Source: Patescibacteria group bacterium | GTDB lineage: Bacteria > Patescibacteriota > Patescibacteriia > PEXW01 | Length of the DNA: 51,416 nucleotides | NCBI GenBank assembly: GCA_038065015.1 | Contig: JBBTRU010000001.1 | Coordinates: forward strand, 1 to 51,416 | Direction of reading: 5' to 3' | Shown: piece by piece, positions 16,601 through 51,416 of the stretch | How positions within the stretch are numbered: position 1 is the stretch's first letter | Layout of the letters: the number at the start of each line of letters is the position of its first letter | The notes under the pieces: generated by a model | Seen by the model: only the letters and a program-made list of their open reading frames with translations | Told to the model about the DNA's origin: nothing | Databases searched by the model: none | Position numbers and translations under genes: made by a program

Positions 16601-19600
16601 TGGTTGCACTGGCCGCTGGGGCTAAAACTGTCGCAGGTGGCTAGGCCGAGGGTAAGATTTTCTTTTTGGCCATTCGGCTTGGTGCTTTCGATGGTGGTAG
16701 TTGGCGTTAGCCACTGGCTGCACTGCCGGTCGCGCTGCACTTTTAGCAGCACGTTACTGTCGCACAGTTCGGGGTGGTCGGCGCAGGCGGCCGGGCTGCC
16801 CGTGGCATCCGGATCGGTCGGCGAACCGCCGATGGGGCTCTGGTCGACATCGTAGGCCAGTGTCGCATTCGAAAGATCGTTGAAGAGTCGGCAGCCTTGC
16901 TTGTCGCCCACCTGGCCGTTGCAGCTGGTGGAATCTACGCTCTGCCGAATAACCGACGTGTTGGTGGTGCTGTTGACTTGCAGGTTATCCAGCCAGTAGC
17001 CGGTGGTGCCGCCCACTGCGCCGGCAATGACATTGCAAGTGACGGCATTACCCGAGAAGAACCGACCGCTAACCCGGAGCGCTGCCGTGTCGCCAAAGCG
17101 GTCGGCCGGAATGCGAAGGGTGGTGCTAGTATTATCGTTAAACAAGCTGCCATCGGGCGAGCTCACCGGCGCATCGCCGCCCTGCGCATTTTTGCAGCTC
17201 ACCAGGCCCAGCCGAAAGTCCTCAGTCATTGCCGCGCTGCCCTTGGCCACGTCGGCACTTACCACGTAGTACGCGTTCGCATCCAGGCTCACGGTTTGCG
17301 TAAAGGTGCCCTGGTTGGTAATAATTGCGCGCACCGCTTGCGAGCCGTTGTTGGGGACGTAGGCCTGCAGGCTCGCACTGACGCCACTCCAGCCTTGGGG
17401 CAGGCTGCCGTTGGCAACTTCGAAATTTCCATTGGTTGTCAAACTGGCGCCGGTGCCAAGTGGGTCCAAGAAGTTACCGCAGCCGTTTTGCTCGGCGGGA
17501 CAGAGTCCGGCGTAGCCGCCATTAGGCACCGCGGGCGGGATGTTGTTGAGCTCGCGCACCGGGCAGGGCGTATCCGTGCCAGCAATGTACCAACCCGCGG
17601 ACTTGTTGCCCGAAACATCGCGGTAGCTGCAGACTTTGCTGCCCGGGTTGCGGAAATAGGCATTGCCGCCTTCGGACAAAGTGTACTCCTCGCAGAACAG
17701 CGCTCCGCGGCCGCACATAATAGTGGTATAGGTGTCGGGGTTATCCCGCAGGTACACGGTTTCCATATTTTGCAGCTTGCCGCTGGCATCGAAATTCTCT
17801 TTGCCCAAGGCGCGGCAACCCTTCTCCTCGGCGCGGCAGGCTTTGGTCGGGTCGTTTACCCAGAATTCCACTTCGTCGGCATCGGTGTCGACTTTGTCGC
17901 CGGGGTACGGGTTGCTGCTAAACGGCGTGCCATCAGAAAGGAACTTGGTAAGCGCAGTAACATCCCCAACGTTGACATTCCCATCGGCATTCGTATCACC
18001 CGCTTCTAACGGGAAGGGCTTTGGGCCGCCAGAGAACATGTAGGCCGCTAGGTAATTAATGTCGGCGCTATCCACCTTGCCGCTGCCGTCTACGTCGCCG
18101 CGCTGGCTGGGGAAGGTAACGCTGGATGCAAACGCATCGGTAGAATTTTTAGTGTTGATGAGTGCCTCGCACCCCACCACTTCGGACTTGCAGAGTTTGC
18201 TAAAGCCGGAGTACGTGTTTACCACGTTGCTGCGGTTGCGGTATTCCTGGCAGCCTTCGAAGCCACCACACGCCGTCTGGCTGGCTTTAATGCGGTAGGT
18301 GCTGTCCGAAATCTCGGTGAGCACAAGGTTATCTATGTAGAAATCTGCACCCAGTACCGACAGGACATTGGTGCCTGCGGTTGCGAAGCTAACGTTCGTG
18401 GGTCCCAGGGTGTAGGCGTTCCAATCTGTCCTCACCGACACGGTACCCATAGACACGGCACTGCCGTTTTGCAAACGGGCTTCCACATCTACATTGGCAC
18501 CGGTATTACTCTTGGCCCAGAACGCCAGGACGTAGCTCTTACCCTGCACCAAGGGCTGGTTGGTTGCCTGGGCATTGGTGGTGACGTGCAAAGAATGCCC
18601 GCCAAAGGTTATGCTCTCGGTGGTGGGGTTAGTTGGATTGCCACTGACCACCCACGGGCTGGACGAGCCGTTTTCAAATTCGCTCTTGAGAATTGTACGG
18701 GTGTTGCTGCCGGTGTTGCCCACATACTCGCGGCAACCCACAGCCGCGGCCGAGCAGGAAAGGGATTTTGTGGCATCGGCGTAGTACACGTTGCTATCCA
18801 CGGTGTTGCGGTAGGGGTGGCAGTCAGCAGTGCCTTCGATAAGGCGCGAGCGCAAGCGGTAGTACACATTGCTTGGATTGAGATCATCGTAGTACTGGCC
18901 GCAGTCTGGATCGGTGCCAAAGGTCGCCTGGCAGTCGATAACTGCTGTTTGCGGGCTGGTGTTGTCTACGCAGTTGAGCGGCAAGGTCTGCCCGGTGTCC
19001 AGGTTGGTACACGGGCCGCTCCCCGCATTACTCTGCTTCAGGCGGTACTGTTTTAACTGGTAGCCGGATTCATTGTCGCCCACCCAGGAATAGTAGTTTT
19101 TCAAGCCCGGGTCGTTGGGCTGCACGCAGAGTTGGAGCTTGGTAAACTGCGCTTTGCCTTCGCCGCCCTGCGCCACCTGGTCTAGGTTGGTATACGCCTC
19201 GCAACCCACATCGGTAGCAGTGCACTGCGTACCGGTTTTGGCAATGAAAGAGACGAGCGGCTGGCAGTCTGCAGGGTTATTACTGCAAGCTGATGCCAGA
19301 GTTGGATCGCACGATGTAAACTTCGTCGGGAGGTCGCTCTTGCAGTAAAACCCGGTGCGCGTGTCGTGCGCTTTCAGCACCCCGGTGGTGGGCTGCTCGC
19401 GGAACGTGGCGCAGCCGGCTTTGTCGGCCGGGCAGCTAATGCCGCCCTTGGCTGGCACGGCTGTACCGCCCGCCGTCGGGGTGAACAAATCGCAACCCAC
19501 ATCCGCGGCAGTACATTTGGAAATAAACTTGCTGCATGCCGGCGGGTCCGTTGCCACATTGCCCGTACAGGCCAGGCCGTCGGCCGGCCGCTTGAGGTGC

Positions 19601-37172: not shown

Positions 37173-37197
37173 GGGAACGTGGACGAATGCACGCGGT

Positions 37198-37240
37198 CTC
37201 CCCGCCTGCCTTCGCCTAGTGCTAGGCAGTGGCGGGCAGG
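37198..37240. repeat. Partial family-1 hairpin module (CCCGCCTGCC..GGCGGGCAGG)
   Basis: ctccccgcctgccttcgcctagtgctaggcagtggcgggcagg parallels ctcccgcctgcctcgcccaggcgagtgcggcgggcagg of the leuS element (reverse strand). It lies in the lspA-comM intergenic region. Confidence 0.45.
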
Positions 37241-37275
37241 AAAGCGCGGGCAAACGCCGATTGTGGTCATCCTGC

Positions 37276-37740
37276 TTACTGCGGGATTTCCGGACGAGTG
37301 CGCCCTTTGGGCACAAACGAGAGAATGAGCACGACCGTTCCAAGGGTTATCAGCCAATCGCCGAGGTTGGCCGTCGTGGGCCAGAAGTCGAACTTGAGGA
37401 AATCGCGAACGTAGCCGAACTCCAGACGGTCGAGGAGATTTGACGCTGCCCCGCAAATAATGGCCAGTGCCGACACCCAGCGGGCGGTAGCACCGGTACG
37501 ATACGCACCCCAGGCAATAGCTGTCACCACCAGTAGCAGCAGGGCAATGAGAAAAAGGGTGAACGGCCCGGGGAGGCCGATGCCAAATGCAATGCCCGTG
37601 TTCGTGGTGGGCGCGCTCTGCAGTAATCCTGGAATAATAGTCTGGGGCGCATGGGCAAAAGCCAGCGTGCGGGTAATGCGATCCGCAACGAAGAGGGCCA
37701 GGGTGCCCCCGGTCCACAGCCAGAATACTCGGCGGAACAT
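37276..37740 (-). CDS. lspA: Lipoprotein signal peptidase (signal peptidase II)
   Basis: 154 aa, 4 TM, with NTGIAFGI, GAASNLLDRLEFGYVRDFL and ANLGDWLI motifs. Confidence 0.85.
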   Translation of the reverse strand: MFRRVFWLWTGGTLALFVADRITRTLAFAHAPQTIIPGLLQSAPTTNTGIAFGIGLPGPFTLFLIALLLLVVTAIAWGAYRTGATARWVSALAIICGAASNLLDRLEFGYVRDFLKFDFWPTTANLGDWLITLGTVVLILSFVPKGRTRPEIPQ

Positions 37741-38409: not shown

Positions 38410-40158
38410 CTACTTCCGTTGTTTCTTGCGTTTTATCTTCTTCACCTGCCGGTCGACCAAATCGTCTATGCGCTTGCGCACTTGGGTAATATCTTTTCGA
38501 ATTTGCTCGTGGGTGGCGGCTTGCATGGACCGTTCGGTGACGCTCGACCGGATAGCGCCAACAATATCTTTCTCCAAGCTCGACTGCAGCCGGTCAATTT
38601 CCTGGTTTATCTGGTCTTCGGCGGTAGTAAGATCAAAACTCTCGGCGCGCTGCCAGTGCCGAAAGCGCTCGTACAGAATGAGGAGCATAGCCAGCAATAG
38701 CAGAATGATGACCAGCAAAAAAATGACCAGGCTCACCGAAGGTACCAGAAAGCCAAAAAGCTGCACGGTAGTGCCCAACGTGTGCATGGTAGCCGGAACC
38801 GACGGTGGGCTTTCAATGCCCTGGCGGTTGATGGCTATCGCCGTAAGGGTGTGGTCGCCCGGCGCGAGGAATGGTTTAAAGGTGTAGCGCCACAGCGTGT
38901 GGCCATCGGGAATCGTTATCCGAGGTGCCGAATCAATGCGGTAGGTGTCGCTGCGAAAACGCGCACTCTCTTTCCCGTCAATGAGGAGAATAATGGTATC
39001 GCCCTGCAGGGTAAGGCCCTCAACCGGCAATTCTGCAAAAAGCGTGAGTTTCTTCGGCACGGAGGTCAGGCGGGGGGCCGGACTGCCTTCGACATTGAAC
39101 TGGCCAATTGCTTCGCGAATGTTCCCGGCGGCATCAATGGCCCGCAGGGTAAACTGGTGTATGCCCGACTTCTGCGTTTCCATGACGTGCGGGCTGGTGA
39201 CGTTGGTAAACTCCTGCGTGTCGAGTGCGAGCATGTACCGCGCCACGCCACTGCCGCTATCCGTTGCTTCAAAAACCAGGCGGTAGGTGGGCGTGCTCGC
39301 ATCCGGTACGGCATTCACCTGCGGGGTAAAACTTTCGGGCGGCTTGGTATCCACGCGTATGCGCAGGTGTGCGGCACTCGACCAGCCGGCACTGTACTTG
39401 GCCCGCAAGTGGAAGTACCACACGCCATCCGCCACGTCGTCGTATTGCCGCGTGCCGCTATTTTCCTCTAGGTTTTCATCGGGTACGGTGCTGGCATTCT
39501 GGTCGAGCAGGTAGCTCACGCCCTGTATACCGGTTGGCTTTGTCCAAGTGAAAACACTATCGTTGAGGTTGTACCAAACACTCGCATCGGGGTGCGTCGA
39601 AGACCGAACAACGGGTGTCGGCGTGCCCGGCGTGGGGGTGGGCGGCGGTACGGTGGGTTCCGCGGCTTGGGCTGCACCAATGCTCAAGGTCACGCTGCCA
39701 TAGGCGGTAAGAATGTTCGTGCCCAAACCGTCGTTGGCCAAAATCGTGCCCGAGGCATAGGTGAGGGCGGCTTTGCCCTCGGCCTTGGCTTTAAAGGTTA
39801 TGGTAATAATGCTGCGGCCCGTGCCTTTGTACCCCGGGGAGGGTAAGCCGCCACCAAACGTCACCGTGCCGTTGCTATTTGAGTACGCCGGCTCGGTAGT
39901 CCAGTACGAGAAGAGACTCCCCTTACTCACGCTGGTTACCTGCAGCTTGTCCGCCGGGAAACTCACCTTGCCCTGGCTGGCATTCATGGCTTGGTCGTTG
40001 CTGCGCGCGATAACCGAAACCGTCGTGGTCTTGCCAACGGTAAGGTTCGTTGCTGCAGCCGACAGGCCAAGGGTTGCAGCACTCGCACTTTGCCCGAACC
40101 AGAACGCAAAACCGAAAGTGAGGAGCGCGACCAAGGCTACACGGAAGGGGCGTGGCAT
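38410..40158 (-). CDS. Cohesin-domain protein, C-terminally membrane anchored (paralogue 3)
   Basis: The start is set at ATG 40158 (MPRPFRVALVALLTFGFAF), 3 nt after the upstream stop. Signal peptide. Cohesin-like module (LTVGKTTTVSVIARSNDQAMNASQGKVSFPADKLQVTSVSKGSLFSYWTTEPAYSNSNGTVTFGGGLPSPGYKGTGRSIITITFKAKAEGKAALTYASGTILANDGLGTNIL). The STHPDASVWY..WYFHLRAK module follows, then Ig-like repeats, a TM (LVPSVSLVIFLLVIILLLLAMLLIL) and a basic coiled-coil tail. Confidence 0.65.
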   Translation of the reverse strand: MPRPFRVALVALLTFGFAFWFGQSASAATLGLSAAATNLTVGKTTTVSVIARSNDQAMNASQGKVSFPADKLQVTSVSKGSLFSYWTTEPAYSNSNGTVTFGGGLPSPGYKGTGRSIITITFKAKAEGKAALTYASGTILANDGLGTNILTAYGSVTLSIGAAQAAEPTVPPPTPTPGTPTPVVRSSTHPDASVWYNLNDSVFTWTKPTGIQGVSYLLDQNASTVPDENLEENSGTRQYDDVADGVWYFHLRAKYSAGWSSAAHLRIRVDTKPPESFTPQVNAVPDASTPTYRLVFEATDSGSGVARYMLALDTQEFTNVTSPHVMETQKSGIHQFTLRAIDAAGNIREAIGQFNVEGSPAPRLTSVPKKLTLFAELPVEGLTLQGDTIILLIDGKESARFRSDTYRIDSAPRITIPDGHTLWRYTFKPFLAPGDHTLTAIAINRQGIESPPSVPATMHTLGTTVQLFGFLVPSVSLVIFLLVIILLLLAMLLILYERFRHWQRAESFDLTTAEDQINQEIDRLQSSLEKDIVGAIRSSVTERSMQAATHEQIRKDITQVRKRIDDLVDRQVKKIKRKKQRK

Positions 40159-40160
40159 GG

Positions 40161-41534
40161 CTACTTCGGGGGTGGCTGCGGGCCAGAATCCTGCTGGTGC
40201 CGGGCCTCGGCGGCAATCGAGGCTTCGAACTCGCGGGCAACTTGAATAGTCTTGGCCAATTCGGATTCTTTGGCGAGAGTTGCGCGTTCGAGCTTTACCA
40301 TATCGTGGATAACATCCACCGGCCGGCGGCGCCAGCGCAAAATGAGCCACACCGCTAGCACGAGCGCGAGCACGCCCAAGCTAATGATGGCAATATTCGT
40401 AATGTAGGTGTTCCGCAACAACGGGTTGCGCTTAATAACCGGCTCGGTTTCGGGGGCGTGGACGGTAAAGAGAATTTTCCCGTCTGTCGAATTTCCGGCC
40501 TGGTCAAAGGCGCGAACAATGACTTCGTACTCACCCACCGAGACTTCGGGCAAACGCACCGGGCTGGTCTGCTCCACGAAAAACGGCGTGGTTTGGTTTG
40601 GATCTTTTAGGGCTTGCGTTTGCATTTCGTAGTGCTCGATGCCAGACATGGCGTCGGTGGTAAGAAACTTTAACTCGGGACGCTTGCCCGGCTCCGGATT
40701 TTGCGGGTCTATGCTGGGTGTAAAGCCGGCCGGGGCCACGCTATCAATAAGCACCGGGTAGTGGCTGGTGCCGCCCCAACTAGTCACTTTGGCGCGCACA
40801 TGGAAGTACCAGCGGCCGTCTTTATCGGCTGACACCTCGGCGGTGCGATTGACCGTCGCATCCGCGCGTTCGGGCGGGGTGGTGCGCGGGTTCTGGTCGA
40901 AAACGTAACTATAGCCAGTGGCATTGATAATGGCTTCCCACGCAAATTGGGCCGACCGGTTCTGGTACCAGGCGTTCTGGTCGGGATGGGAGGCAGACGA
41001 AACAATCGGCCCTTCGGGTGCGGCCAAGCTCAACGTATACGTGGCGTCGCCACGGGAAGTGAGGATATCTGTCCCCTGCCCGTCATTGAGAAGAATTTGT
41101 GAAGTGCTCTGAAAAGAGAGCTTCGCCGACCCAGCTGACGTGGCCCGAAAGGTGATCGTACTAATAATCCCGGCATCGGTTTTAATACCCGGGTTCGGTA
41201 ACCCGCCCTGGAACGATATCGTGCCCGCGGTGTTGGAGTACGCCGGCTGGTTAACCCAAATGGAAATAAAAGAGGTGCCCGCGCTCGGGTTGACCACTTG
41301 CATGCGGTTAGCCGGGAATTTTATATCAACTTTGGCGGCATTAATAGACTTGCCGCCGGTATTGAGCATGATGGATACGTTGAACGTACTCCCAACGGTA
41401 AAACTCCCGCTTGCCGGACCAAAGAGCAAACTTGCGCCTTCGAGGGCACGGCTCGGTGCGGGAGCGACGCTGGCAACCAGAACCGCGAGCGCGAGACCAA
41501 AGAAAAATCTTGGTATGTGATGTTTAACCTCCAT
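40161..41534 (-). CDS. Cohesin-domain protein, C-terminally membrane anchored (paralogue 2)
   Basis: 457 aa. Signal peptide. Cohesin-like module (FTVGSTFNVSIMLNTGGKSINAAKVDIKFPANRMQVVNPSAGTSFISIWVNQPAYSNTAGTISFQGGLPNPGIKTDAGIISTITFRATSAGSAKLSFQSTSQILLNDGQGTDIL). ASHPDQNAWY..GRWYFHVRAK module. TM (ITNIAIISLGVLALVLAVWLIL). Confidence 0.65.
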   Translation of the reverse strand: MEVKHHIPRFFFGLALAVLVASVAPAPSRALEGASLLFGPASGSFTVGSTFNVSIMLNTGGKSINAAKVDIKFPANRMQVVNPSAGTSFISIWVNQPAYSNTAGTISFQGGLPNPGIKTDAGIISTITFRATSAGSAKLSFQSTSQILLNDGQGTDILTSRGDATYTLSLAAPEGPIVSSASHPDQNAWYQNRSAQFAWEAIINATGYSYVFDQNPRTTPPERADATVNRTAEVSADKDGRWYFHVRAKVTSWGGTSHYPVLIDSVAPAGFTPSIDPQNPEPGKRPELKFLTTDAMSGIEHYEMQTQALKDPNQTTPFFVEQTSPVRLPEVSVGEYEVIVRAFDQAGNSTDGKILFTVHAPETEPVIKRNPLLRNTYITNIAIISLGVLALVLAVWLILRWRRRPVDVIHDMVKLERATLAKESELAKTIQVAREFEASIAAEARHQQDSGPQPPPK

Positions 41535-41564
41535 ACAGCCTAGTATAGCGCGTTTTTTCAGGGT

Positions 41565-42680
41565 CTACCTGCGCCGACGGACTATGTATACCGCCATCCC
41601 CGAACTCACCACCAGGATGCCGCCAATAATGAGAATGAGCAGGTGCGACGAGCGATCGGGCGCGAGACCAGAGCCGGCCAGGGTGACCGCCCGGGCATTG
41701 CCCGCCGCATCATAGGCTGTGACGACAATGGCCGCGCGCTGCTTCTGGTCGAGCAAGGTATAGGGGCTTGCAGCATTATCTGCAACCACGCTGCCTTCCT
41801 GCACGGTGTAACGGACAATATCCGAGGTTTCGTCCGTCGTTTGGAATACGAGCGCGAGCTTTCCCGGTATGACATCGCGGGTAAGCACCGGGGTAAACCC
41901 TTCGGGCATAACCGTGTCTACGAGTACGCGGCGAATGGCAACGGTCCGCCAGGCATCACCGGGCAATTTTTCGCGAAGAATAAAGTAGTGCGCCCCATCC
42001 TGCACGTCGGTGAATGTTGCTTCGGCCATCGCCGTGCCAAAGCGCTCATCCGGCAGGGCAGCGGGTTCGTCTGCCAGGAGGAAGGCGTAGAGCGCGTCTT
42101 TGGTGGGTGTCCAGGCCAGGGCCACGTTGCCGGCGTTGTACCAAGCATTCTCTTGCGGGTGGGTGCTCGAAACCAAACTTATGCTGCTATCGTTTACGCC
42201 CACGGTTACCGTGCTGGTTTCCGCCCGCAGCGGCGTGGCCGTGCCGAGGCCGTCGTTCAACCGCACGCTCGAAAGCACCGTATCCACGCCAATAGTCGTG
42301 GCGCCGAGCACCTTGGGCCGGAACACCAGCGAGAGGACGCGGCCGTTAATAACGTAGCTGCCGTTGGGCACGCCGCCGACGAAAGACACCACGCCCGCAA
42401 CCGCGTCGACCTTTGGCCCTTCGGCCCAGAGCGTCAGGAACGAACCGGCTTTCGACACGTCAACAACTTCGAGGGCGGTTGGATCGTACGTGATCTTGCC
42501 TTCCACGGCGTTCACCACTTGCGTTTCGCTGTTGAGCCGCACCTCCACAACCGCCAGCTGGTCTTGGGCCGCGTTTACCTTTGCCGGAATAACGGAAAGT
42601 ACTGCCGCCGTAGCACGGTGCTGTGCCAGCGTGAACGCGAGTATGGCGAGGGCAAAAATGGAAAATAATCGGTTGCGCAT
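41565..42680 (-). CDS. Cohesin-domain protein, C-terminally membrane anchored (paralogue 1)
   Basis: 371 aa. Signal peptide. Cohesin-like module (LAVVEVRLNSETQVVNAVEGKITYDPTALEVVDVSKAGSFLTLWAEGPKVDAVAGVVSFVGGVPNGSYVINGRVLSLVFRPKVLGATTIGVDTVLSSVRLNDGLGT). STHPQENAWY..GAHYFILREK module. TM (HLLILIIGGILVVSSGMAVYIV). Confidence 0.65.
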   Translation of the reverse strand: MRNRLFSIFALAILAFTLAQHRATAAVLSVIPAKVNAAQDQLAVVEVRLNSETQVVNAVEGKITYDPTALEVVDVSKAGSFLTLWAEGPKVDAVAGVVSFVGGVPNGSYVINGRVLSLVFRPKVLGATTIGVDTVLSSVRLNDGLGTATPLRAETSTVTVGVNDSSISLVSSTHPQENAWYNAGNVALAWTPTKDALYAFLLADEPAALPDERFGTAMAEATFTDVQDGAHYFILREKLPGDAWRTVAIRRVLVDTVMPEGFTPVLTRDVIPGKLALVFQTTDETSDIVRYTVQEGSVVADNAASPYTLLDQKQRAAIVVTAYDAAGNARAVTLAGSGLAPDRSSHLLILIIGGILVVSSGMAVYIVRRRR

Positions 42681-42691
42681 AGGTGTATGGG

Positions 42692-43549
42692 TTACTTCTG
42701 GCCAGTCCAGAAGTACAGCATAACGCTGAAATCAATAATATTCACGGTGGTGTCATGATTTATGTCTGCCCGGGCATTGGCAGGATTTTTTTGCAGCCAG
42801 TAGAAAAGCAGGATGCTGAAGTCAATAATATCCACATTCCCATCCTTGTTAATATCCGCATCAATGTACCCGGCATCCGGGTTCGTGATGCTCGCCACCG
42901 TAAATGCCACGCTGTTGCTGAACTCCGAAATGAGCCCTTCCGGGTCTTCGGCTTTGGACCGAGCCACGTGATCACCCGCCTTCAGGTCATCGGCAAAGAG
43001 CTGCTTGGTCCAGAGCCCGTCCGTGCCGGCTTTGGTGGTGTATTCCCGCTCGGTATCGGAAGCGACAAAAACGTGAACGTTGCTACTCGGGCTGGTAGCG
43101 CCAAACACCGTCACGGTTTCGCCAAAGGTGAGCGTCGTACGGTCGGCCACAATCGTCGGTCCCAAAAAAATCCCGGTTATCGTCACGGTCGTGCCGGTGG
43201 TAAGCGTTACCGTGAAGCTCGAAGTCGGGCTCTGGCGGCTCTGGCCATCCGTGGCAAAAATCCCAAAGGTGTACGTGCCGGCAGTCAGGCTCCCCACGGT
43301 AATATCAAAGCGCGCCTGCGGGTCGGCCGGTACTTGCACTGTGGTCACGCCGTCTTTTTGAATGGTGACGGTAGACGACGGGTAGGCTATACCTTTAAAA
43401 ATAACCGCGGTGGGCGGTGGTTCGGGCGGGATGGGACTCGGCACAGTTGCGGTTACCGAAATGTCTATGGCCTGCGCCGGCACCGCGGCAAGCAAAACAA
43501 AAATTGCCGCCAGGATTGCCAGTGTCCGGTACCAGCGGCCGGTACGCAT
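42692..43549 (-). CDS. Secreted Ig-like protein with C-terminal dockerin
   Basis: 285 aa. Signal peptide (LAILAAIFVLLAAVPAQA) and a beta-rich body. The C-terminal dockerin (DNA ~42707..42862) reads DADINKDGNVDIIDFSILLFYWLQKNPANARADINHDTTVNIIDFSVMLYFW. Confidence 0.75.
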   Translation of the reverse strand: MRTGRWYRTLAILAAIFVLLAAVPAQAIDISVTATVPSPIPPEPPPTAVIFKGIAYPSSTVTIQKDGVTTVQVPADPQARFDITVGSLTAGTYTFGIFATDGQSRQSPTSSFTVTLTTGTTVTITGIFLGPTIVADRTTLTFGETVTVFGATSPSSNVHVFVASDTEREYTTKAGTDGLWTKQLFADDLKAGDHVARSKAEDPEGLISEFSNSVAFTVASITNPDAGYIDADINKDGNVDIIDFSILLFYWLQKNPANARADINHDTTVNIIDFSVMLYFWTGQK

Positions 43550-43556
43550 GCACTTG

Positions 43557-44594
43557 CTAAACTATCCCCTTCGGCGGATTTTGGTTCTTCCCAGCCTGGG
43601 CTTTAGAAATAACCCACTTATTGTACCGCTTGATGAGGATGATGAGCAGCACCAGTAAAATGACGAAGCCTAGGCCCCACGCCAGCAGGACGTGCCAGGG
43701 GAACACCATAAACGTCGTGGTTGCCGTGGTCGCAACGCCGCCCGATTGTCCTGCGGTGAGCGCGAGGGTGGCCGTGTACTTGCCGAAGCCAAAGTTTGCC
43801 CGTTCGTTACTGTATTCTTCCCAGAACTTGGCCCAGGCATTACTGGCCGTTGCTAGTACTGTACCTTTCTCCCACGTTACATCGTAGCTGCGGGAAGACT
43901 TTGGCAAGGTCGAACGTTTCGTGGGGTTTACGGCAAGCGTAGCAGCGACTTTCTTGCCCATGCCCGTAATCGTCACGTTACCAGACGGTTTCAAGTGAAT
44001 GTTCCCAGTGTTCTGGTAGTCAATGGTAAAGCTCACCGGCATGCGGTTCGTCCGAGATACGGTAGTGAATGTGGAAATTGCGGCAGACTCCACAACATCA
44101 CCTTCAATACGTACCAGCAATAACGTACCAATGCCTTGCGTAATAGCAACTTGCGGCTTGTCTGTACCCGTGGTCGGCGGCTTGGAAGAGAAAGCAACAA
44201 TACCATAGTGCCCGCCCGGGGCGGCATCGGCCGGCACATTCACGGTGATGGTTACTTCTTTTCGCCCTTGCGGTTCCAGAATTATTGGTGCGGGATCCAG
44301 CTTTACCCAGGTGGCGATATCTTCTTTAGGTACTGTAAAATCATAAACCGGTATGCCTTCTTCCGACCCAGAAGTGAAGGTAGTGGCGTCTAAGAATAGC
44401 TCTTGCTTGGTCGCGCCTTCGTTGTAGAGCTTGACGACAAACTCGGCCTGGTTGCCAGGTTGAACGGTGAACTCGATGGAGGGCGGGCTAATGGTGAGCG
44501 CCTTTGCGGGCAACGCCCCGCTCAAGAGGCCAACAATGCCGAATGCAGCGGCGAGGATTCCAGAGAAAATGAATTTATTTTGCTTTCTAGCCAT
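43557..44594 (-). CDS. Cell-surface protein, DUF916/CscA-like architecture (signal peptide, beta-sandwich body, C-terminal TM + basic tail)
   Basis: 345 aa. LTISPPSIEFTVQPGNQAEFVVKLYNEGATKQ..WVKLDPAPIILEPQGRKEVTITVNVPADAAPGGHYGIVAFS. C-terminal TM (VLLAWGLGFVILLVLLIILI) then KRYNKW. The assignment rests on architecture and motif resemblance only. Confidence 0.4.
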   Translation of the reverse strand: MARKQNKFIFSGILAAAFGIVGLLSGALPAKALTISPPSIEFTVQPGNQAEFVVKLYNEGATKQELFLDATTFTSGSEEGIPVYDFTVPKEDIATWVKLDPAPIILEPQGRKEVTITVNVPADAAPGGHYGIVAFSSKPPTTGTDKPQVAITQGIGTLLLVRIEGDVVESAAISTFTTVSRTNRMPVSFTIDYQNTGNIHLKPSGNVTITGMGKKVAATLAVNPTKRSTLPKSSRSYDVTWEKGTVLATASNAWAKFWEEYSNERANFGFGKYTATLALTAGQSGGVATTATTTFMVFPWHVLLAWGLGFVILLVLLIILIKRYNKWVISKAQAGKNQNPPKGIV

Positions 44595-44728
44595 AGGTTT
44601 GTCTAGTCAAAACTACCCCCATACTATAGCACATTCTTGGTTGGTTCCCTATCGTGACGAAGGACAAATACCTGGAGTGCCCATTATGAGGCCTTCAGGC
44701 AATGTCCATAATATTCACGCCAAGTACG

Positions 44729-45880
44729 TTAAAAAGTACCGGTGGCGATGTAGGTAATTGTTGTAGTGTATGCACCAGCACCAGTCGACCCAACAATGTT
44801 TGCCAATGCGCTCACGGTTAATGTTTCCGTATTCGTAGCAACGGCTTCAGAAATGAGCGTGGTTGTCGTGCTGGCCACGTAATTGAAACTCGCGGTGGCA
44901 TCTCTTTCGTATCCACTTGTGGGAGTTGAATCACCGTCTGTGCTAACACTAATACCAAAGGTGGCGGTAGTACCGGGTGCGCCATCACTATCATTGGTTG
45001 TGCTGTTATTCGGAATCGTGCTTGGACCGCCTAGTGATGCACCATTGTAAGTCACGGCCCAACCAGACGCAGCGTTTGTCGCAACCGTCATTGTGTGGGC
45101 TGCATCAGGAATGGTCGTACCATTTGGGGCAGCAGATCCGGTTGTTCCAGTCGCCCAACGGGCATTTGCTGTGGTTAGTGTACCGAATCCAATTGTATTA
45201 TCATCAACGGTAAAAGTAATCGAGGGGTCAACTGTGGCCGTCACTGCAACCTGTTCATCAGTGATAATTGAGATTGAACCTGACCCGCTATCATCGGTTG
45301 CACCCAGTTCAGTGGTAATGTCCACATCATAGTTGCCGGCAGTACCGTTTGTTATTGTGCTGGTTGACCCACCCCCACCCGAGGTCGCACCATCACCGGC
45401 AATAAGTTTTACGCAACGGCCAGCGGTAACTTCGCCACTTGTTGCATCGGTCGGGGCCGTAAGGGTAATAGCCTGGCCCGTTACATCAACACCCCAGGTC
45501 GCAGCAGCTGCGGTCAGTGACAGGGTTTTATCCACGTAGGTTAATCCACCATTGAGACACGTACCGTTTGCAGTCGAAACCTCAAAGTCAAAGTTGACGG
45601 CAGCTTCGGCAGCCAAAACTACACCAGAATCAAAGGTGTAGGTAATCGTATCGGTAGATGCATCTACGCCAGTTGGAATCGTATGGTAAATGTTGACGCT
45701 CGTGGCAGCGATACTGGCCTTAACACGCTTTTGCTCCCATGAAATCTGCCCTAGGGTAGCGGCCTGTGCTGGATTAATAGGCGTAAGAAAAGCCAGCAAG
45801 GCAAATATTGCAACAACGGCTACGGCTTTGCGAGCCGGTCCATGCTTGGTCAGCAATGCGATGATGGTTTTCATAGCCAT
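44729..45880 (-). CDS. Secreted surface protein with WxL-like C-terminal domain
   Basis: 383 aa. Signal peptide (VAIFALLAFLTPINPAQA). The C-terminal ~170 aa (SITFTVDDNTIGFGTL..AASGWAVTYNGASL..GAYTTTITYIATGTF) is colinear with the C-terminus of ORF 46335..51416. GC and codon usage are lower than in neighbours. Confidence 0.45.
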   Translation of the reverse strand: MAMKTIIALLTKHGPARKAVAVVAIFALLAFLTPINPAQAATLGQISWEQKRVKASIAATSVNIYHTIPTGVDASTDTITYTFDSGVVLAAEAAVNFDFEVSTANGTCLNGGLTYVDKTLSLTAAAATWGVDVTGQAITLTAPTDATSGEVTAGRCVKLIAGDGATSGGGGSTSTITNGTAGNYDVDITTELGATDDSGSGSISIITDEQVAVTATVDPSITFTVDDNTIGFGTLTTANARWATGTTGSAAPNGTTIPDAAHTMTVATNAASGWAVTYNGASLGGPSTIPNNSTTNDSDGAPGTTATFGISVSTDGDSTPTSGYERDATASFNYVASTTTTLISEAVATNTETLTVSALANIVGSTGAGAYTTTITYIATGTF

Positions 45881-45918
45881 TCGGGGCTAAAGTAAGGGTT
45901 TTTATTACGACTGAAAAT

Positions 45919-45947
45919 AGTATAGCACGGATTACGAAAAAAGGCAA
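45919..45947 (-). promoter_or_regulatory. Candidate sigma70-type promoter of the 383-aa surface protein gene
   Basis: Minus strand: TTGCCT-tttttcgtaatccgtgc-TATACT, with a 17-nt spacer and a TGc extended -10. It lies 38 nt upstream of the ATG at 45880. Confidence 0.4.
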
Positions 45948-45954
45948 ACCTAGG

Positions 45955-46330
45955 CTACGCCCCTCTCTCGCCCTTCCTGCCCGCCATTGCTAACGCTCAG
46001 GCGTTGCAGGCGGGCGGGCACCTGGGCGCTCCCGATGGGTCGCACCCGCCTACGGCTCCCCCCAAGGTGGGAGAGTGATGAAAAGTGTTAACCCCCCCTC
46101 TCCCTCGGGAGAGGTACGGGTGAGGGGATGACGAGTGTGGCTCTGTCACACCTCCCCTTAGTCCCCTCCTTCGTAAGGAGGGGATAATTTCTAAGCATCC
46201 TCCCCTGCGAGTGGAGAGGATGTTCTAAGGTCTCCCTCTCCGCTTGGGGAGAGGGACCAAGGGAGAGGGGTTCAAAGAAAAATATCCCCTCCTCTCGGAG
46301 GAGGGGTGGCCAAAGGCCGGGGTGGTATTA
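45955..46330. repeat. Array of non-identical GC-rich hairpins (families 1-3), directly 3' of the giant gene stop
   Basis: cctgcccgcc..aacgc-tcag-gcgtt..ggcgggcggg (about 45977-46018). Family-3 unit at 46021-46075. cctctcc-ctcg-ggagagg (~46097-46114). cccctcctt-cgt-aaggagggg (46163-46183). catcctcccc-tgcgag-tggagaggatg (46196-46222). tccctctcc-gcttgg-ggagaggga (46233-46256). cccctcctc-tcg-gaggagggg (46286-46306). Confidence 0.75.
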
Positions 46331-46334
46331 TTTT

Positions 46335-49300
46335 CTAGAACGTCCCCGTGACAATGTACGTCACGGCGGTGCTGTACGCGCCAGGCAGCGTGGTTGCAGC
46401 AATGTTGCAAATGTAATACACGCTGGCCGTTTCGGTGGTGGGCGTGGCCGTGGCTTTAGAAAGCAGCGGCGTGGTTGTACTCGGTACAAACGAGTAGTTG
46501 TTGCTGGCTTGCTGGTTGGCCGACGGGATAGTGCCGCTGCCGTTTGTGGTAATCGCCAGGGCAAATTGCTTGCTGTTGGGCGTACCATCGGCATCGCCGG
46601 TGAACGTGGCCGCGGTAATCGTTTCTGGGCCGACCAGGTTAGCGCCATTGTAGCTAAGGGCGTAGCCTTCAAATGCGCTGGTGGTAATAGCTAGGGTGTG
46701 GGCGGCCACGGCGCTAGCCGAACCCGTTGCCCCGGCATTGGCCCAGGTGGCGGCCGTGGAAGAGAGCGTACCAAACCCGACTGCCACATCGTTAATAACA
46801 AAGGTGAGGGTGTGGATATTCCAGCAGTCGTTGCCGCCAATGTCGTGGCTCGTGCCGTCGCTGGCGTCAATGTCTGGAGCTTGGCCGCAGGCGTTAGAGT
46901 CTTTTACTTCTGTATACGTTACCGCCCGCGTACCCGCCACGTTCACATTCCACTGCGTGCCGCCGGTGGAACTGCGCAAAGCCACGCGCGTACCAGTGGC
47001 TTGGCCATTGAGGGTAAGATTTTGCAACGTGTACGTGCCACCGGCCAAGAAGCGCAGCTTGGTACTGGCCGTGCTGGCGTTAAAGGTGCTGGCTGTATCC
47101 AGTGCTGCAGCAAAGATGACGGACGGTGAAGTCACCGGATCCGATCCCGAAGCATTGGTAATGATGAGGTTGTTAAACCGGTCATTGGCGCCCGTGAGTT
47201 GGCCATCTACGGTCTGCTGGCTGCCGCCATCCAGCGTGACTGTGCCACTGCCGTCGGTGAAGTCGCCGTTGTTGGTCCAGTTACCCGCGACGTTGAATGC
47301 CGCCGTGGATGAAGCCTGCAGTGTCGTGCCAGCGCCAATCGTCACGGCGCCGTTGACGTCTATAATCCGATCGTTGGTTTCGTTATCAACTATCAAGGAC
47401 GTGCCGCCATTAGTGGTAGACAGCGTATTTGCCACAATGGTTTGGCCAGTACCCGTGGCATTGAACGTGATTGTGGGCGTGCCGGATGAGGCCGTGAACG
47501 TAAGGTTGTAGAACGTCCAGTTGGTACCCACGGCCACGTTGGTGCCAAAGCTCTTGCTGGCACTCACACTCTGCGTGAAAGTATTGGTGCCAGCACTGTT
47601 CATGGTAATGGTGCCGCAGGTGGTAAGGCACTGCACGTTGCCATTCACCGTGACATTGGCTGTGCCGGCAGCCGTATTAAACGTACCCGCAGTCATAATG
47701 AGGTCATTCGTTACCGTCAGGGTATTCGTCAGTGGCGACCACGCCCCGCCCGAACCGTTGAACGTAACGTTGTAAAAATTCGATGCGCCATTATTTATGG
47801 TGTGGCCCGTGTCGGTTGCCGTGAACGTGGCGGTGGAGGTGTCGTACGTAAAAGTGTTGCTGTTCAACCAGTTGCCCCCAACGCTGATGGCATTTGCGTC
47901 GGCGGTCCAAACGCCCACGTTTTCCACGTGGTTTGTGGTTACGTCAGCGCCACCGGCTGATGCCGGACGGAACGTATCGCCAGACGCAACGTAGAGCTCT
48001 TCCTGCGAAGACTGTACTTCTGTATCAACGGTGAGGTCGTTGCCCGCGCTGACTTCCCAGAAAACGTCGTCATCGCCGCTGGCAACCGAGTTGTCATATT
48101 GGCCAATGTCCGCATTGGTAAGCGTCTGGTCGTCCACGCTGCCAATGGTGAAGTGTTCTTTGAAAAGTGTCACGCCGGTTATATCGCCCGTGCCGTCATA
48201 CTTGGCCACTGCCCCGGCCCGGTCGGCCATGGTGGCCGCCGCGTCTATCCATATGGTTACAATCTGTCCAGAGGTTACCGACACGCCAGAGATATCCCAG
48301 GTGCCGGCAATGCTGGTATCTTCCTGGGCTTGGACAGACCCGTTGACCGCAACTTTCACAGTGCCAACGTCGGTGCAGTCCGTGCTTTGGTCATAGGCGT
48401 CGCACGTGCCAGAAATAGTTATACCGCAGGTGGCACCGGCGCTCACGCTCCAGTTGGTGTTGCCGCCGCCGGTTTCGGTGGAAAAAGTGGCACAGAACGC
48501 GGCACCGGTATTATTAGAATCCGATACCTGCACGTACGTGACCGCTGCCGCCGTGGGATTGATAGTCCACTGGGTTGGCGAGCTGGATGACTCGAGGGTA
48601 ATTTTCTTCCCCGAGAATCCAGTAATCGTCCACGTACCCGACACGGTCTGGGTGGTACTGGCAGTGAAGCGGAGGGTGCGGCCGGCCGCATTCGCCGACG
48701 TGGACGCGTTGAAATTATTGAAGGTTGTGCTGCCCGAAAGCAGTTGCGTCGAAGCATCGGCACCGTCGAAGGTGACGGTTCCGCTGCGGGCAGTGAACCC
48801 GCCAGAGTTTGCCCAGTTCCCGGCCACGTCAAGGTTGTAGTTTGAGCCCGACTTCGCGTCGAGGGTTGCGCTGGCGCCAATGGTCACGTTGCCGCCGACC
48901 CCATTTGAACCCGTCAGATCGCCCGAGAGGTCATAGGTTTCCGCGCCAGCCACCTCCAAATTGTTGTACGTCGTGGTGGCGACGTTCACATTCCCCCCGG
49001 AATTCGTTGCTGTGTATTTCACCGTGGAATTGCTATTGGGCGTAAGCGTACCAGTCACCGTGAATACAGTAGCCGTCGCTCCGGCCTTCGCCAGCATCAA
49101 TGTGTAGCCACTGCTCGCCAGGTCCAGGGTATCGCCAGTCTGAATGTCTGCACTATCCCCAGTCATACTGGATGCGAGTGTCACTTTATCATTAGCGCCC
49201 ACACCGCTGGTTTTGTTGAAGACGACGGTGCCAATATTCTGCGGAGTGCCGGTGCTATCGGTGTAGGTCGCGGCCGTGGTGCCATCGAAGGTCCAGGTGC

Positions 49301-51416
49301 CGGTCCCTTTCATCACACTACCGGCTGACGCAATGGAAACATTCTTCGCAACATTCACATTCGGGTCGTTCGTATCAATATCCAGCGCCCCGTCGGTGAG
49401 TGTGAGGTTGCCAGCCACAATCAAATTGCCAGAGATAATACAATCATCGTTGCTTGTGCCGGCATTCTTACATTCGAAGTTATAGAAAGTCTGGCCGTTG
49501 GTAATTATAGTCTCGTGGGCATTCGTGGCGGCCGTGCTATTCATGAACACCGTCGAGTTCGTGTACGCCGTAAGCGTACCCGACATGGTCCAGTTGCCGC
49601 CCACGTCCATAATGGTGCCGTCACCTTCGTTACTCCCGCCGCTGTCCGTTAGGTCGAGCGTACAGGTACCCTGGCAATCTACGTGGTGGGTTACCGTCAC
49701 GTCGTAGCCCTTGGTATTCAAGGTGTCGGTGGTGTGAATGTTTAAGTTCTCGACGCTGGTATCGCTCGAAAGCGTCACCGTGCTGGGGCTTTGGCCAATT
49801 TGCAGGGTGCCCAGATTCTGCTTAGTTGCATTCGAGTCCGTGTAGGTCATGGTCGTTCCATCCAGGATGAAGACACCCGAGCCGCTGGCTTTGGTAAACG
49901 TGCCGCCGCTAGCAATGCTCACCGTAGCGCCTGTAAGAACGACGTTCACATTGGCGCCTTGCTGGAAAGTGGCACCGTTGGCAATGGAGTAGGCACCATC
50001 TGCTTGCATGGCAGTGGAGTTCGTCACCGTGCCCGTGCCCGAAACCGCAACGGCGTTGAACGACGAGCTGCCGTTGAGCGTGCCGGAGAGCGTCTGCGTG
50101 CCGGTACCGTTGAAAGTTACCGTACCGCTGCTGTGCGTGAACGTCCCGTTGTTGGTGTAATCGCCCTTAAGGTTAAGCGCGCCGCTACTAGGCGCAGTGA
50201 GGGTATTCCCCGTGCCAATGGTGGTTGCCCCACCGACCGTAAAGGTCGGGTTGTTCGTAACCATATCTATAGTGACTGTTCCGGTGCTCGTTTTGGTCAG
50301 GCTCAAGGCACCACTTAAGGTCACCGTTCCCAAGTTTACCGTCAGGGTGCGATTGGTAGCGCCGGTGTTGTACGCTTCTACATCCCCGTAGTCTGCCCGT
50401 GCGCTCAAAGTCTGCGCCGCATTGGTCATGTCCATGCGCAAGATGAGCACGGCGGCAAGCGTACCCGAAGTTGGGAATGCCGTGCCGCTCTGGTACGTGA
50501 GCCGGCCCGGACCGTTGAGCGTACCGCTAAGGGTGAGCGTGGCACCGGTGTGCGTAAGGGTGCGCCCGCTATTTATGGTGAGTGCATCACTGGCCGCAAT
50601 ATCCAACGTGTTTGAAACTATAAGATCGGAAGTTTGCAAAGTAATAGTACCGGCCGAGCTGGGATTAATGGTGAGGCTATTGAGCGTGAACCCGCCTCCG
50701 GTAATATTGTTGGACGTGCCGGTCATCGTCACCGTGGACGTGCCCGGGGTCACGGTACCGCCGAGCACGAGGTTGCCGTTCACAGTGTGCGTGGCATTGG
50801 CCAGGGTAATGGTTCCGGAGAGCGTGAGATTTTGCAGGGTTTTACCAGCACTCGTTAAAGTCTTGCCCGCACCGTTCATGACCAGCGTATTCCCGGCTGC
50901 CGCGGTCAGGGCCCAACAATTGGTCATCGTAAAGTCCCCCCCAATGGTCCAGGTGTTCGTGCCGGTAATAACTGTTGCCCCGTTCTCTATAGGAATGGTG
51001 CAGGAAAAATTTCCTAACGCTGTGAAAGGCAAATTATTCGTGGCCCCGGTGAGTATGGGGTCAATACTAACATTCCCAACGGTCACGTTCCCGTCCGCGT
51101 AGAACTCGCCCAGCGTATAGGTGGGAATACCAAGCCCCGTCGGGTTGAAGGTGACGTGGTGGTAGTAGTTGCTCGCCGAGGTGGTCGTCCCCACGGTGGC
51201 ACTCGTAATGTTACTGTAGTTGAACGTGGACGTACTACCCGTGAGCCGGCCATTGTTCACAAATGGCGCACCCGTGGCCTTGAGCTGCCAGGTCTTGCTG
51301 CCCGCATTGAGGTACGTGTAGTACGTGGCATCCGTCGTGGTGGTGAGCACGCCGTTAATGGTCATGCCCCCGACACCCAAGGCTGTGGTCGTCTTATCCG
51401 CGCCAGCACCGGTAAT
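46335..51416 (-). CDS. Giant T/G/N/S-rich beta-helix-type surface protein with WxL-like C-terminal domain (5' end beyond right edge)
   Basis: The frame is open from the stop at 46335 to the last base of the window; upstream of the track's TTG 'M' it reads ITGAGADKTTTA in frame, so >1,693 aa. Degenerate ~20-25 aa G-x-T-[LV]-T/N-x-G repeats run throughout. Two longer modules end in W-x-[IV]-N..V-[TS]-Y-x-x-V-x-D-S-N. The C-terminal 170 aa (LTFVINDVAVGFGTL..FEGYALSYNGANL..GAYSTAVTYIVTGTF) are shared with ORF 44729..45880. Confidence 0.7.
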   Translation of the reverse strand: MTGAGADKTTTALGVGGMTINGVLTTTTDATYYTYLNAGSKTWQLKATGAPFVNNGRLTGSTSTFNYSNITSATVGTTTSASNYYHHVTFNPTGLGIPTYTLGEFYADGNVTVGNVSIDPILTGATNNLPFTALGNFSCTIPIENGATVITGTNTWTIGGDFTMTNCWALTAAAGNTLVMNGAGKTLTSAGKTLQNLTLSGTITLANATHTVNGNLVLGGTVTPGTSTVTMTGTSNNITGGGFTLNSLTINPSSAGTITLQTSDLIVSNTLDIAASDALTINSGRTLTHTGATLTLSGTLNGPGRLTYQSGTAFPTSGTLAAVLILRMDMTNAAQTLSARADYGDVEAYNTGATNRTLTVNLGTVTLSGALSLTKTSTGTVTIDMVTNNPTFTVGGATTIGTGNTLTAPSSGALNLKGDYTNNGTFTHSSGTVTFNGTGTQTLSGTLNGSSSFNAVAVSGTGTVTNSTAMQADGAYSIANGATFQQGANVNVVLTGATVSIASGGTFTKASGSGVFILDGTTMTYTDSNATKQNLGTLQIGQSPSTVTLSSDTSVENLNIHTTDTLNTKGYDVTVTHHVDCQGTCTLDLTDSGGSNEGDGTIMDVGGNWTMSGTLTAYTNSTVFMNSTAATNAHETIITNGQTFYNFECKNAGTSNDDCIISGNLIVAGNLTLTDGALDIDTNDPNVNVAKNVSIASAGSVMKGTGTWTFDGTTAATYTDSTGTPQNIGTVVFNKTSGVGANDKVTLASSMTGDSADIQTGDTLDLASSGYTLMLAKAGATATVFTVTGTLTPNSNSTVKYTATNSGGNVNVATTTYNNLEVAGAETYDLSGDLTGSNGVGGNVTIGASATLDAKSGSNYNLDVAGNWANSGGFTARSGTVTFDGADASTQLLSGSTTFNNFNASTSANAAGRTLRFTASTTQTVSGTWTITGFSGKKITLESSSSPTQWTINPTAAAVTYVQVSDSNNTGAAFCATFSTETGGGNTNWSVSAGATCGITISGTCDAYDQSTDCTDVGTVKVAVNGSVQAQEDTSIAGTWDISGVSVTSGQIVTIWIDAAATMADRAGAVAKYDGTGDITGVTLFKEHFTIGSVDDQTLTNADIGQYDNSVASGDDDVFWEVSAGNDLTVDTEVQSSQEELYVASGDTFRPASAGGADVTTNHVENVGVWTADANAISVGGNWLNSNTFTYDTSTATFTATDTGHTINNGASNFYNVTFNGSGGAWSPLTNTLTVTNDLIMTAGTFNTAAGTANVTVNGNVQCLTTCGTITMNSAGTNTFTQSVSASKSFGTNVAVGTNWTFYNLTFTASSGTPTITFNATGTGQTIVANTLSTTNGGTSLIVDNETNDRIIDVNGAVTIGAGTTLQASSTAAFNVAGNWTNNGDFTDGSGTVTLDGGSQQTVDGQLTGANDRFNNLIITNASGSDPVTSPSVIFAAALDTASTFNASTASTKLRFLAGGTYTLQNLTLNGQATGTRVALRSSTGGTQWNVNVAGTRAVTYTEVKDSNACGQAPDIDASDGTSHDIGGNDCWNIHTLTFVINDVAVGFGTLSSTAATWANAGATGSASAVAAHTLAITTSAFEGYALSYNGANLVGPETITAATFTGDADGTPNSKQFALAITTNGSGTIPSANQQASNNYSFVPSTTTPLLSKATATPTTETASVYYICNIAATTLPGAYSTAVTYIVTGTF

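Follow-up and report, generated by a model that had tools for sequence, protein, structure and literature searches.

How is a pilus held on a cell that has no outer membrane and no sortase signal with which to fix it? Patescibacteria, or the candidate phyla radiation (CPR), spend their lives bound to host cells, a habit in which their surface appendages play a central part. What is known of the cohesin-dockerin pair comes mainly from cellulosomes, and the pair is noted for very high mechanical strength. We analysed a stretch of 51,416 nt from a Patescibacteria genome (contig JBBTRU010000001.1, assembly GCA_038065015.1), hereafter the window, in which one gene for a dockerin protein and three genes for cohesin paralogues (C1-C3) lie on the minus strand at 38410-43549. 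These are the last four genes of a locus, probably of Pam pilus type, that occupies the same strand from 38410 to 51416 and runs on beyond the window. We propose, with a probability that we put at about 0.62, that the dockerin protein terminates a Pam-type pilus assembled by donor-strand exchange, and that cohesin-dockerin binding replaces a transmembrane (TM) helix as the membrane anchor of this pilus. The original prediction, made from the letters of the window, had placed the four genes correctly and had taken them for a stand-alone display system; the latter description is unlikely to hold, as the genes form the 3' module of what is probably a donor-strand-exchange pilus operon.

A donor-strand pilus of CPR bacteria was first described in 2026, as the CPR-specific Pam pilus of Candidatus Mycosynbacter amalyticus (Troman et al., bioRxiv 10.64898/2026.03.03.709456). 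In that system, the pilins have two domains and the strand linking them goes to the C-domain of the neighbouring subunit, the tip has an acceptor domain and no donor, the chaperones are anchored by a TM helix, and the terminator, PamR, combines an N-terminal strand, tandem FnIII domains and a C-terminal TM helix. Neither cohesin nor dockerin is mentioned in the preprint, and in the literature searched we found no paper tying either of them to the anchoring of pili or to surface systems of CPR bacteria. The system proposed here would combine the known Pam pilus with the known cohesin-dockerin anchoring, and in it the pilus-anchor role of the pair is unreported in that literature. Like the Pam pilus, the locus has a pilin C-domain that probably belongs to the same family, a linker strand, a candidate acceptor-only tip, chaperone-like proteins with a TM helix, predicted Sec export, no outer-membrane usher and a candidate terminator with an N-terminal strand. 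In contrast to Pam, the candidate terminator ends in a dockerin instead of a TM helix and is followed by two to three TM-anchored cohesins, the candidate tip, a giant adhesin, exceeds 1693 aa, and the lineages are of Kerfeldbacteria/Parcubacteria type, as against Saccharimonadia/Microgenomatia.

From the domain identities, the conservation of the operon, the identity of the strand and the equivalence of the terminal gene slot, all observed, we infer strand insertion, cohesin-dockerin binding, the choice of cohesin and the anchoring role in the following mechanism. All products would be exported by Sec. The giant, which has only the pilin acceptor domain, would start the fibre as a tip adhesin. 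Pilins would then join at the base, the linker strand QVAVTATV of each entering the C-terminal domain of the previous subunit with the help of the TM-anchored chaperone-like protein. The 285-aa dockerin protein, with the same strand and no acceptor domain, would cap the last pilin and halt growth. Its Ca-binding dockerin would plug into the cohesin carried on the three-domain stalk of one or more of C1-C3, so that the pilus is held at the cytoplasmic membrane of a cell lacking an outer membrane. The cohesin-dockerin joint would in this way do the work of the C-terminal TM helix in PamR-type terminators.

A dockerin protein with a pilin-like strand

The dockerin protein (42692..43549, minus strand, 285 aa), our proposed pilus terminator and anchor adaptor, begins with a signal peptide (residues 1-27, cleavage AQA|). 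This is followed by a donor-like strand, IDISVTATV (I28-V36, nt 43442-43468), a Pro-rich linker, two Ig domains (residues 48-218, with a Pfam Big_13 match among them) and a type I dockerin (residues 231-283, nt 42701-42859). The protein therefore ends in a dockerin and has no TM helix, while sharing with PamR the strand and the two Ig/FnIII domains. Against Pfam Dockerin_1 (PF00404), the dockerin scored 32.9 bits, above the gathering cut-off of 22.9 bits. It consists of two near-identical Ca-loop/helix segments, DINKDGNVDIIDFSILL and DINHDTTVNIIDFSVML, and the best sequence matches of the protein in the PDB are the type I dockerins 2vn5 and 2vn6. The type I pattern, in which two segments of ~22 residues both comprise a helix and a Ca loop of the form DxNxDGxxxxxD, is found both here and in the second dockerin of the window, discussed below. 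In an AlphaFold2 (AF2) model with a mean predicted confidence (pLDDT) of 90.9, the dockerin helices lie at residues 241-249 and 271-282, and residues 22-47 form an unpaired coil outside the first Ig domain of the monomer. A fold like that of RbmA or PamR was considered and set aside as unspecific, with RbmA at ranks 31-49 amid many generic tandem Ig/FnIII proteins.

To place these genes in a wider context, we used two sets of loci. A scan with the cohesin-protein family, with one genome per species, gave at least 270 relatives. From these, 78 loci were kept as Patescibacteria on the basis of database label or gene content, some of the automated labels being unreliable (e.g. 'uncultured Gammaproteobacteria'); open reading frames (ORFs) were called in the kept loci and searched with hidden Markov models (HMMs) made from the window proteins. 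The second, independent set came from a metagenome scan seeded with pilins and not with cohesins.

The pilin of the window (44729..45880, minus strand, 383 aa) has a signal peptide, an N-domain, the linker or donor strand QVAVTATV (Q210-V217, nt 45230-45253) followed by DPS, and a C-terminal acceptor domain. Among the pilins of related loci, 29 of 33 match the NCBIfam model NF058581 (CPR_Pam_pilin_C; best E 9e-29) and 14 match PamT, and matches to NF058579 were also seen. Pilin alignments conserve D-D-x-V-x-V-T-A-T-V-D-P between the N- and C-domains, at the place expected of a Pam linker strand. The mature N-terminus of the dockerin protein resembles this strand (QVAVTATV-DPS) in nearly every locus, with a mean similarity of 18.0 versus 9.1 for shuffled sequence. 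Lineage variants of the two go together, as in NDQVLVTATV beside SDQVAVTATV and TATVREF beside TATVQEW. Conservation within the dockerin-protein family is among the highest at this strand, with A34 nearly invariant and V36 invariant across 62 homologues. Dockerin orthologues of 437-458 aa, together with fusions in four loci (L024, L035, L047 and L081), carry a pilin N-domain and the strand ahead of the Ig-Ig-dockerin part, and both look like pilins in which the acceptor domain has been replaced. Because it has a donor strand and lacks an acceptor domain, the dockerin protein has the property expected of a terminator.

The pilin-seeded set bears most directly on anchoring. In 26 distinct cases, the gene after the chaperone encodes a dockerin protein, and TM cohesins come next wherever the contig is long enough. 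In six cases, the same slot holds a protein with a signal peptide, the strand, Ig domains and a C-terminal TM helix, and no cohesins were detected at these six loci. One of these proteins (L089) is homologous to the dockerin protein of the window over residues 18-222 (E 1e-18) and ends in a TM helix; other TM-ended counterparts start with YSTTATVPSP (L145) or VAVAATVPSD. Since TM-ended proteins occupy the dockerin slot where no cohesins were detected, the dockerin and the TM cohesins would together take the place that the TM helix has in a PamR-type protein. This substitution, read from gene order and homology, argues most strongly for the cohesin-dockerin pair as a pilus anchor.

If this reading is true, the cohesin-dockerin pair would have a new role beyond enzyme display, the pili would be predicted to be releasable by EDTA (ethylenediaminetetraacetic acid), and the presence of the gene module in at least 270 relatives of a one-genome-per-species collection would be explained. 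TM-anchored cohesins are also natural parts for the engineering of surface display.

Membrane-tethered cohesins beside a single dockerin gene

All three cohesin paralogues are encoded on the minus strand. C1 (41565..42680, 371 aa) consists of a signal peptide, a cohesin (residues ~25-159), an FnIII-like motif domain, an Ig domain, a TM helix and an RRRR tail. C2 (40161..41534, 457 aa) has a signal peptide, a cohesin (residues 33-167), two FnIII/Ig domains, a TM helix (376-403) and a cytoplasmic helix (405-448). C3 (38410..40158, 582 aa) has a signal peptide, a cohesin, two FnIII/Ig domains, an extra Ig domain of Big_13 type that is also present in the dockerin protein, a TM helix and a charged cytoplasmic helix of ~90 aa. 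The motifs S-x-x-H-P...W-Y and Y-F-x-x-R-x-K, in the form SxTHP..WY and WYFHxRAK, are invariant among C1-C3 and lie in the beta domain that follows the cohesin; after this motif domain, each protein has a further Ig/OmpL47-like (Big_13-like) beta domain. The architecture first described, namely a signal peptide, a cohesin, a motif module, a TM helix and a cytoplasmic tail, needs correction: it missed the third beta domain and the fourth, Ig-type domain of C3, and C1 is almost without a tail. For C3, the start is the ATG at 40158, 2 nt past the preceding stop, which gives a normal signal peptide and agrees with orthologues of 580-583 aa. A 646-aa ORF with a GTG start (38410-40350) was rejected as an over-extension that overlaps the previous gene by 190 nt.

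Pfam profiles and a structural model agree on the first domain. C2 and C3 scored 33.1 and 31.0 bits against Pfam Cohesin (PF00963, gathering cut-off 24.1 bits), C1 fell just under at 22.6 bits, and most homologues carry PF00963. In the AF2 model of C2, built from 70 homologues (pLDDT 89.9), a signal helix precedes three beta domains, after which come the TM helix and a cytoplasmic helix. The first domain has the nine-strand jelly-roll fold of type I cohesins: in a Foldseek comparison, it superposed on 6kgf, 1g1k, 2vn5, 4uyp and 5nrm with TM-scores of 0.70-0.77 and root-mean-square deviations of 2.5-3.3 Å over ~150 columns. The top match of the whole C2 model was 2w1n, the cohesin and FnIII module of Clostridium perfringens GH84C, which likewise has a cohesin followed by FnIII and employs the pair outside cellulose degradation; there it belongs to secreted toxin/glycosidase complexes, whereas C1-C3 are integral to the membrane and are encoded in a pilus operon. 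In PDB searches by sequence, the pilin was unmatched and a single cohesin protein matched no cohesin, while profiles and fold comparison did work. The profile scores and the modelled fold support C1-C3 as genuine cohesins tethered by a TM helix and not by SLH or sortase signals, in line with what the prediction had proposed for both fold and tether; the refuting outcome that the prediction had named, modules that do not model as the cohesin jelly-roll, did not occur.

C1-C3 share 32-44% identity with one another within the window and belong to old orthogroups that keep a fixed order, C1 being of rank 1; C2 is the most conserved, at 75-90% identity with close orthologues. Three loci also encode a small protein, 168-170 aa long, that consists of a signal peptide and a cohesin only, without a TM helix, and whose gene separates the pilin-dockerin fusion from the TM cohesins (L024, 1686-2192; L075, 5962-6471; L081, 5790-6302).

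The four genes are tightly packed. Gaps from the chaperone-like gene through C3 are 2-30 nt, with 11 nt between the stop of the dockerin gene and the start of C1 and 2 nt between the stop of C2 and the start of C3. Across relatives, the dockerin gene lies directly 5' of the first cohesin gene in 70 of the 71 loci with enough sequence. A chaperone-like gene stands upstream of the dockerin gene in 53 of 64 loci, followed further upstream by a Pam-type pilin (43 of 53) and a giant with a match to PILC, our HMM of the pilin C-domain (31 of 43). Among the 78 loci, the commonest orders are giant, pilin, chaperone, dockerin and three cohesins, and giant, pilin, two chaperones, dockerin and two cohesins. 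Lineages with two to five cohesins still have one adjacent dockerin gene. Because of this adjacency in 70 of 71 loci, the operon dockerin protein is very probably the partner of the C1-C3 cohesins. The idea of the cohesins as sockets for the 285-aa protein thus gains support, with the qualification that this protein is not simply cargo, as it bears a pilin donor strand.

The proposed joint is analogous to the surface attachment of cellulosomes by anchoring scaffoldins such as SdbA and OlpB of Clostridium thermocellum and to the type I cohesin-dockerin complexes 2vn5, 6kgf and 4uyp; in cellulosome attachment, too, a cell-bound cohesin holds a dockerin-bearing structure through a Ca-dependent, non-covalent bond. 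The two symmetric segments of the operon dockerin also recall the dual-binding type I dockerins of cellulosomes. Unlike in cellulosomes, the anchor here is a TM helix with an FnIII stalk, there is one cohesin per protein, and the proposed cargo is a pilus and not enzymes. Dockerin recognition positions are usually Ser-Thr; in the operon dockerin, they are instead hydrophobic (I-I/DFS).

Evidence against pilus anchoring, and rival readings

Several results weigh against a pilus terminator held by cohesins. The pilin of the window scored 44.9 bits against NF058581 (E 1.2e-11), under the curated cut-off of 55 bits. No NCBIfam model of Pam chaperones or of PamR matches the chaperone-like or dockerin proteins, and the chaperone assignment is built on weak profile matches (E 0.03 to 5e-4). 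Covariation of the strand by locus is marginal, with a similarity of 18.0 within a locus against 16.7 across loci, and 140 of 5000 permutations reach the observed value. In a minority of dockerin-cohesin modules, no Pam pilins could be detected and the N-terminal modules are of other kinds. Additionally, the conservation of two to three distinct cohesin proteins is not accounted for by the pilus-anchor model.

Since some modules are without Pam genes, the dockerin-cohesin module would be a general anchor and not strictly a part of a pilus. The loci without detectable Pam pilins (L070, L076, L078, L044, L043 and L079) often have a giant gene upstream. Most of their dockerin proteins open with a conserved module of ~55 aa (SSNF/Y..dPV..GG..S.SF....GQ..G.S.S..F..GGFLYFP), followed in several by an FnIII-like stretch and a poly-Gly linker. 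Such loci may represent a second kind of appendage on the same anchor.

The display reading of the original prediction holds that C1-C3 are sockets of differing specificity that show both the 285-aa dockerin protein and a 3069-aa adhesin linked to a type IV secretion system (T4SS), coupling the two loci. This giant (13699-22908, minus strand) contains an internal type I dockerin (17938..18099, residues 1604-1657; Dockerin_1 31.6 bits) that adjoins a CBM_4_9 domain. It is the one other dockerin in the window, as had been predicted; a scan for the motif in all ORFs of the window turned up no third one. The secretion system itself is of the monoderm/CPR kind, with a VirB4-like ATPase (P-loop_TraG/AAA_10, 5470-7368), PrgI (8052-8519) and T4SS_pilin (2805-4118). 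Both dockerins are canonical, and no cohesin other than C1-C3 was found in the window. An exhaustive search placed the giant's dockerin at the same position in the nine closest homologous giants among the matches listed, and two dockerin-bearing giants sit in syntenic T4SS loci (L083 and L084). Because it is kept in these giants and loci, the giant's dockerin is probably functional and so probably has a partner. A word-indexed search, which returned one homologue without the dockerin, had suggested a lineage-specific insertion; the exhaustive search overturned this. Moreover, the two dockerins differ in their helix residues (SADINYL and VGDVTAL in the giant, versus the operon type IIDFSILL), which would fit different cohesin partners, and display of this kind is compatible with the pilus-anchor model. 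Against it, the module lies within pilus operons, and the donor strand of the pilins recurs in its dockerin protein. Among the matches listed, only ~13 of ~147 giant homologues have the dockerin, which is absent from ~90%, and a local HMM of the operon dockerin misses that of the giant. C1-C3 are old, co-conserved orthogroups in fixed order, beside a single adjacent dockerin gene whether a lineage has two cohesins or five, so that the suggested partitioning of three sockets between two dockerins is weakly supported. On balance, we consider stand-alone display unlikely.

A wider formulation joins the two ideas: cohesin-dockerin would be a standard load-bearing surface socket of Patescibacteria, anchoring Pam-type pili in hundreds of species, with paralogues docking different appendages such as the pilus terminator and the dockerin of the T4SS giant. 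We regard this as speculative and doubtful in its full extent. If the shared socket were real, machines for host attachment and for DNA or protein transfer would share a modular, Ca-dependent and possibly releasable anchoring platform.

Alternatively, the TM cohesins could form an assembly platform, acting like an usher or scaffold during polymerisation, with the dockerin protein as an assembly adaptor or initiator and not the final anchor. Three distinct, co-conserved subunits with long cytoplasmic helices do suggest a hetero-oligomeric machine. A platform would also give a role to the conserved motif domain (SxTHP..WY, WYFHxRAK), which is not otherwise accounted for, and the cohesin genes are tightly coupled to the chaperone gene. 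However, no cohesin proteins occur in the sampled Pam operons that have a TM-anchored terminator, so that polymerisation as such can do without them; being donor-only, the dockerin protein follows the logic of a terminator. An assembly platform thus appears improbable.

We rejected cellulosome-like display of degradative enzymes encoded elsewhere in the genome, which is very improbable: the cohesin and dockerin domains, the CBM_4_9 of the T4SS giant and the fact that the rest of the genome lies outside the window speak for it, whereas Pfam scans of either locus found no glycoside hydrolase, as the prediction had noted, each protein has a single cohesin and hence none is a scaffoldin with several cohesins, the constant partner gene codes for Ig domains and no others, and the host belongs to the Patescibacteria, whose genomes have reduced metabolism.

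Upstream genes and other features of the window

Candidates for a tip and for a chaperone lie upstream. The proposed tip adhesin is a giant, beta-helix-like surface protein of more than 1693 aa (46335..51416, minus strand) whose gene runs off the window. Its last ~165 aa (46335-46850) form a Pam-pilin C-terminal acceptor domain that is 42% identical to the C-domain of the pilin (E 2e-30), and the local PILC HMM matches residues 1536-1693. No VTATV strand was found ahead of this domain in any locus. Because an acceptor domain is present and a donor strand absent, the giant follows the logic of a tip adhesin.

This arrangement resembles that of chaperone-usher pili (Pap/Fim, and class 5 CFA/I), with an acceptor-only tip, a donor-strand polymer and a donor-only, PapH-like terminator. 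It differs from them in having no outer membrane or usher, a membrane-tethered chaperone and a two-domain pilin, and the relation in sequence is not significant (E 0.87). With a weak E-value, but at a telling position, the pilin family profile aligns the strand with the donor strand of CfaB engineered into structure 2hb0 of CfaE. The VSVTATVDP consensus of the pilin linker strand is nearly the same as NITVTASVDP of CfaB from Escherichia coli CFA/I (class 5), by convergence or deep homology.

The chaperone candidate (43557..44594, minus strand, 345 aa), putatively PamC/D-like and WxLIP-like, has a signal peptide, two Ig-like domains and a C-terminal TM helix, an architecture that would suit a PapD/FimC-like chaperone of the PamC/PamD kind. 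It matches Pfam WxLIP_PGBD at E 5e-4, and in its family 36 of 55 members do so (best E 1e-7); the best PDB match of the family profile is EfmWxLIP1 (9i25/9i1y, E 0.03). WxL clusters of Firmicutes encode a small WxL protein, a large WxL protein and WxLIP, which consists of DUF916, DUF3324 and a TM helix (PMC10599100). The chaperone-like family is distantly related to WxLIP, and the layout of the operon mirrors a WxL cluster in pairing a large and a small protein that have a common C-terminal domain, beside a TM protein with two Ig domains. In contrast to the locus described here, WxL clusters are without dockerin or cohesin genes and are described as peptidoglycan-bound and not as pili, and the similarity is weak. 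A common ancestry of Pam pili and WxL clusters is possible.

An intergenic region of 454 nt (45881..46334, minus strand) separates the giant gene from the pilin gene. It contains a terminator-like hairpin with a T tail after the giant gene (46286-46306) and a promoter-like site ahead of the pilin gene (45919-45947), both on the minus strand and both identified by consensus match only. About six short GC-rich palindromes are also present in 45881-46334 (CCCCTCC..GGAGGGG and CCCTCTCC..GGAGAGGG), with the look of REP-type elements, one of them being the hairpin at 46286-46306. An Rfam search of the window gave no match. Plus-strand ORFs at 41643-42668, 42683-43606 and 36472-37443 are long but antisense to genes; no protein family supports them, and they are probably side effects of the GC-rich coding sequence.

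In some operons (L093-L095, L101 and L102), the cohesins are followed by a second pilin-chaperone pair, which gives the gene order G-P-(P)-H-D-C-C-P-H. Around the T4SS giant, synteny with L083 and L084 covers Sua5, an MFS protein, KsgA, a TSP3 protein, the giant, a 1263-aa protein, PrgI, a TraC-like protein, VirB4 and the T4SS pilin. Within this giant, Cys-rich repeats (C..GCxEY/ALINT) flank the CBM_4_9 domain and the dockerin. Dockerin modules similar to that of the giant also occur in tandem, with 8-12 copies in proteins of 720-1107 aa (P0249, P0254 and P0303).

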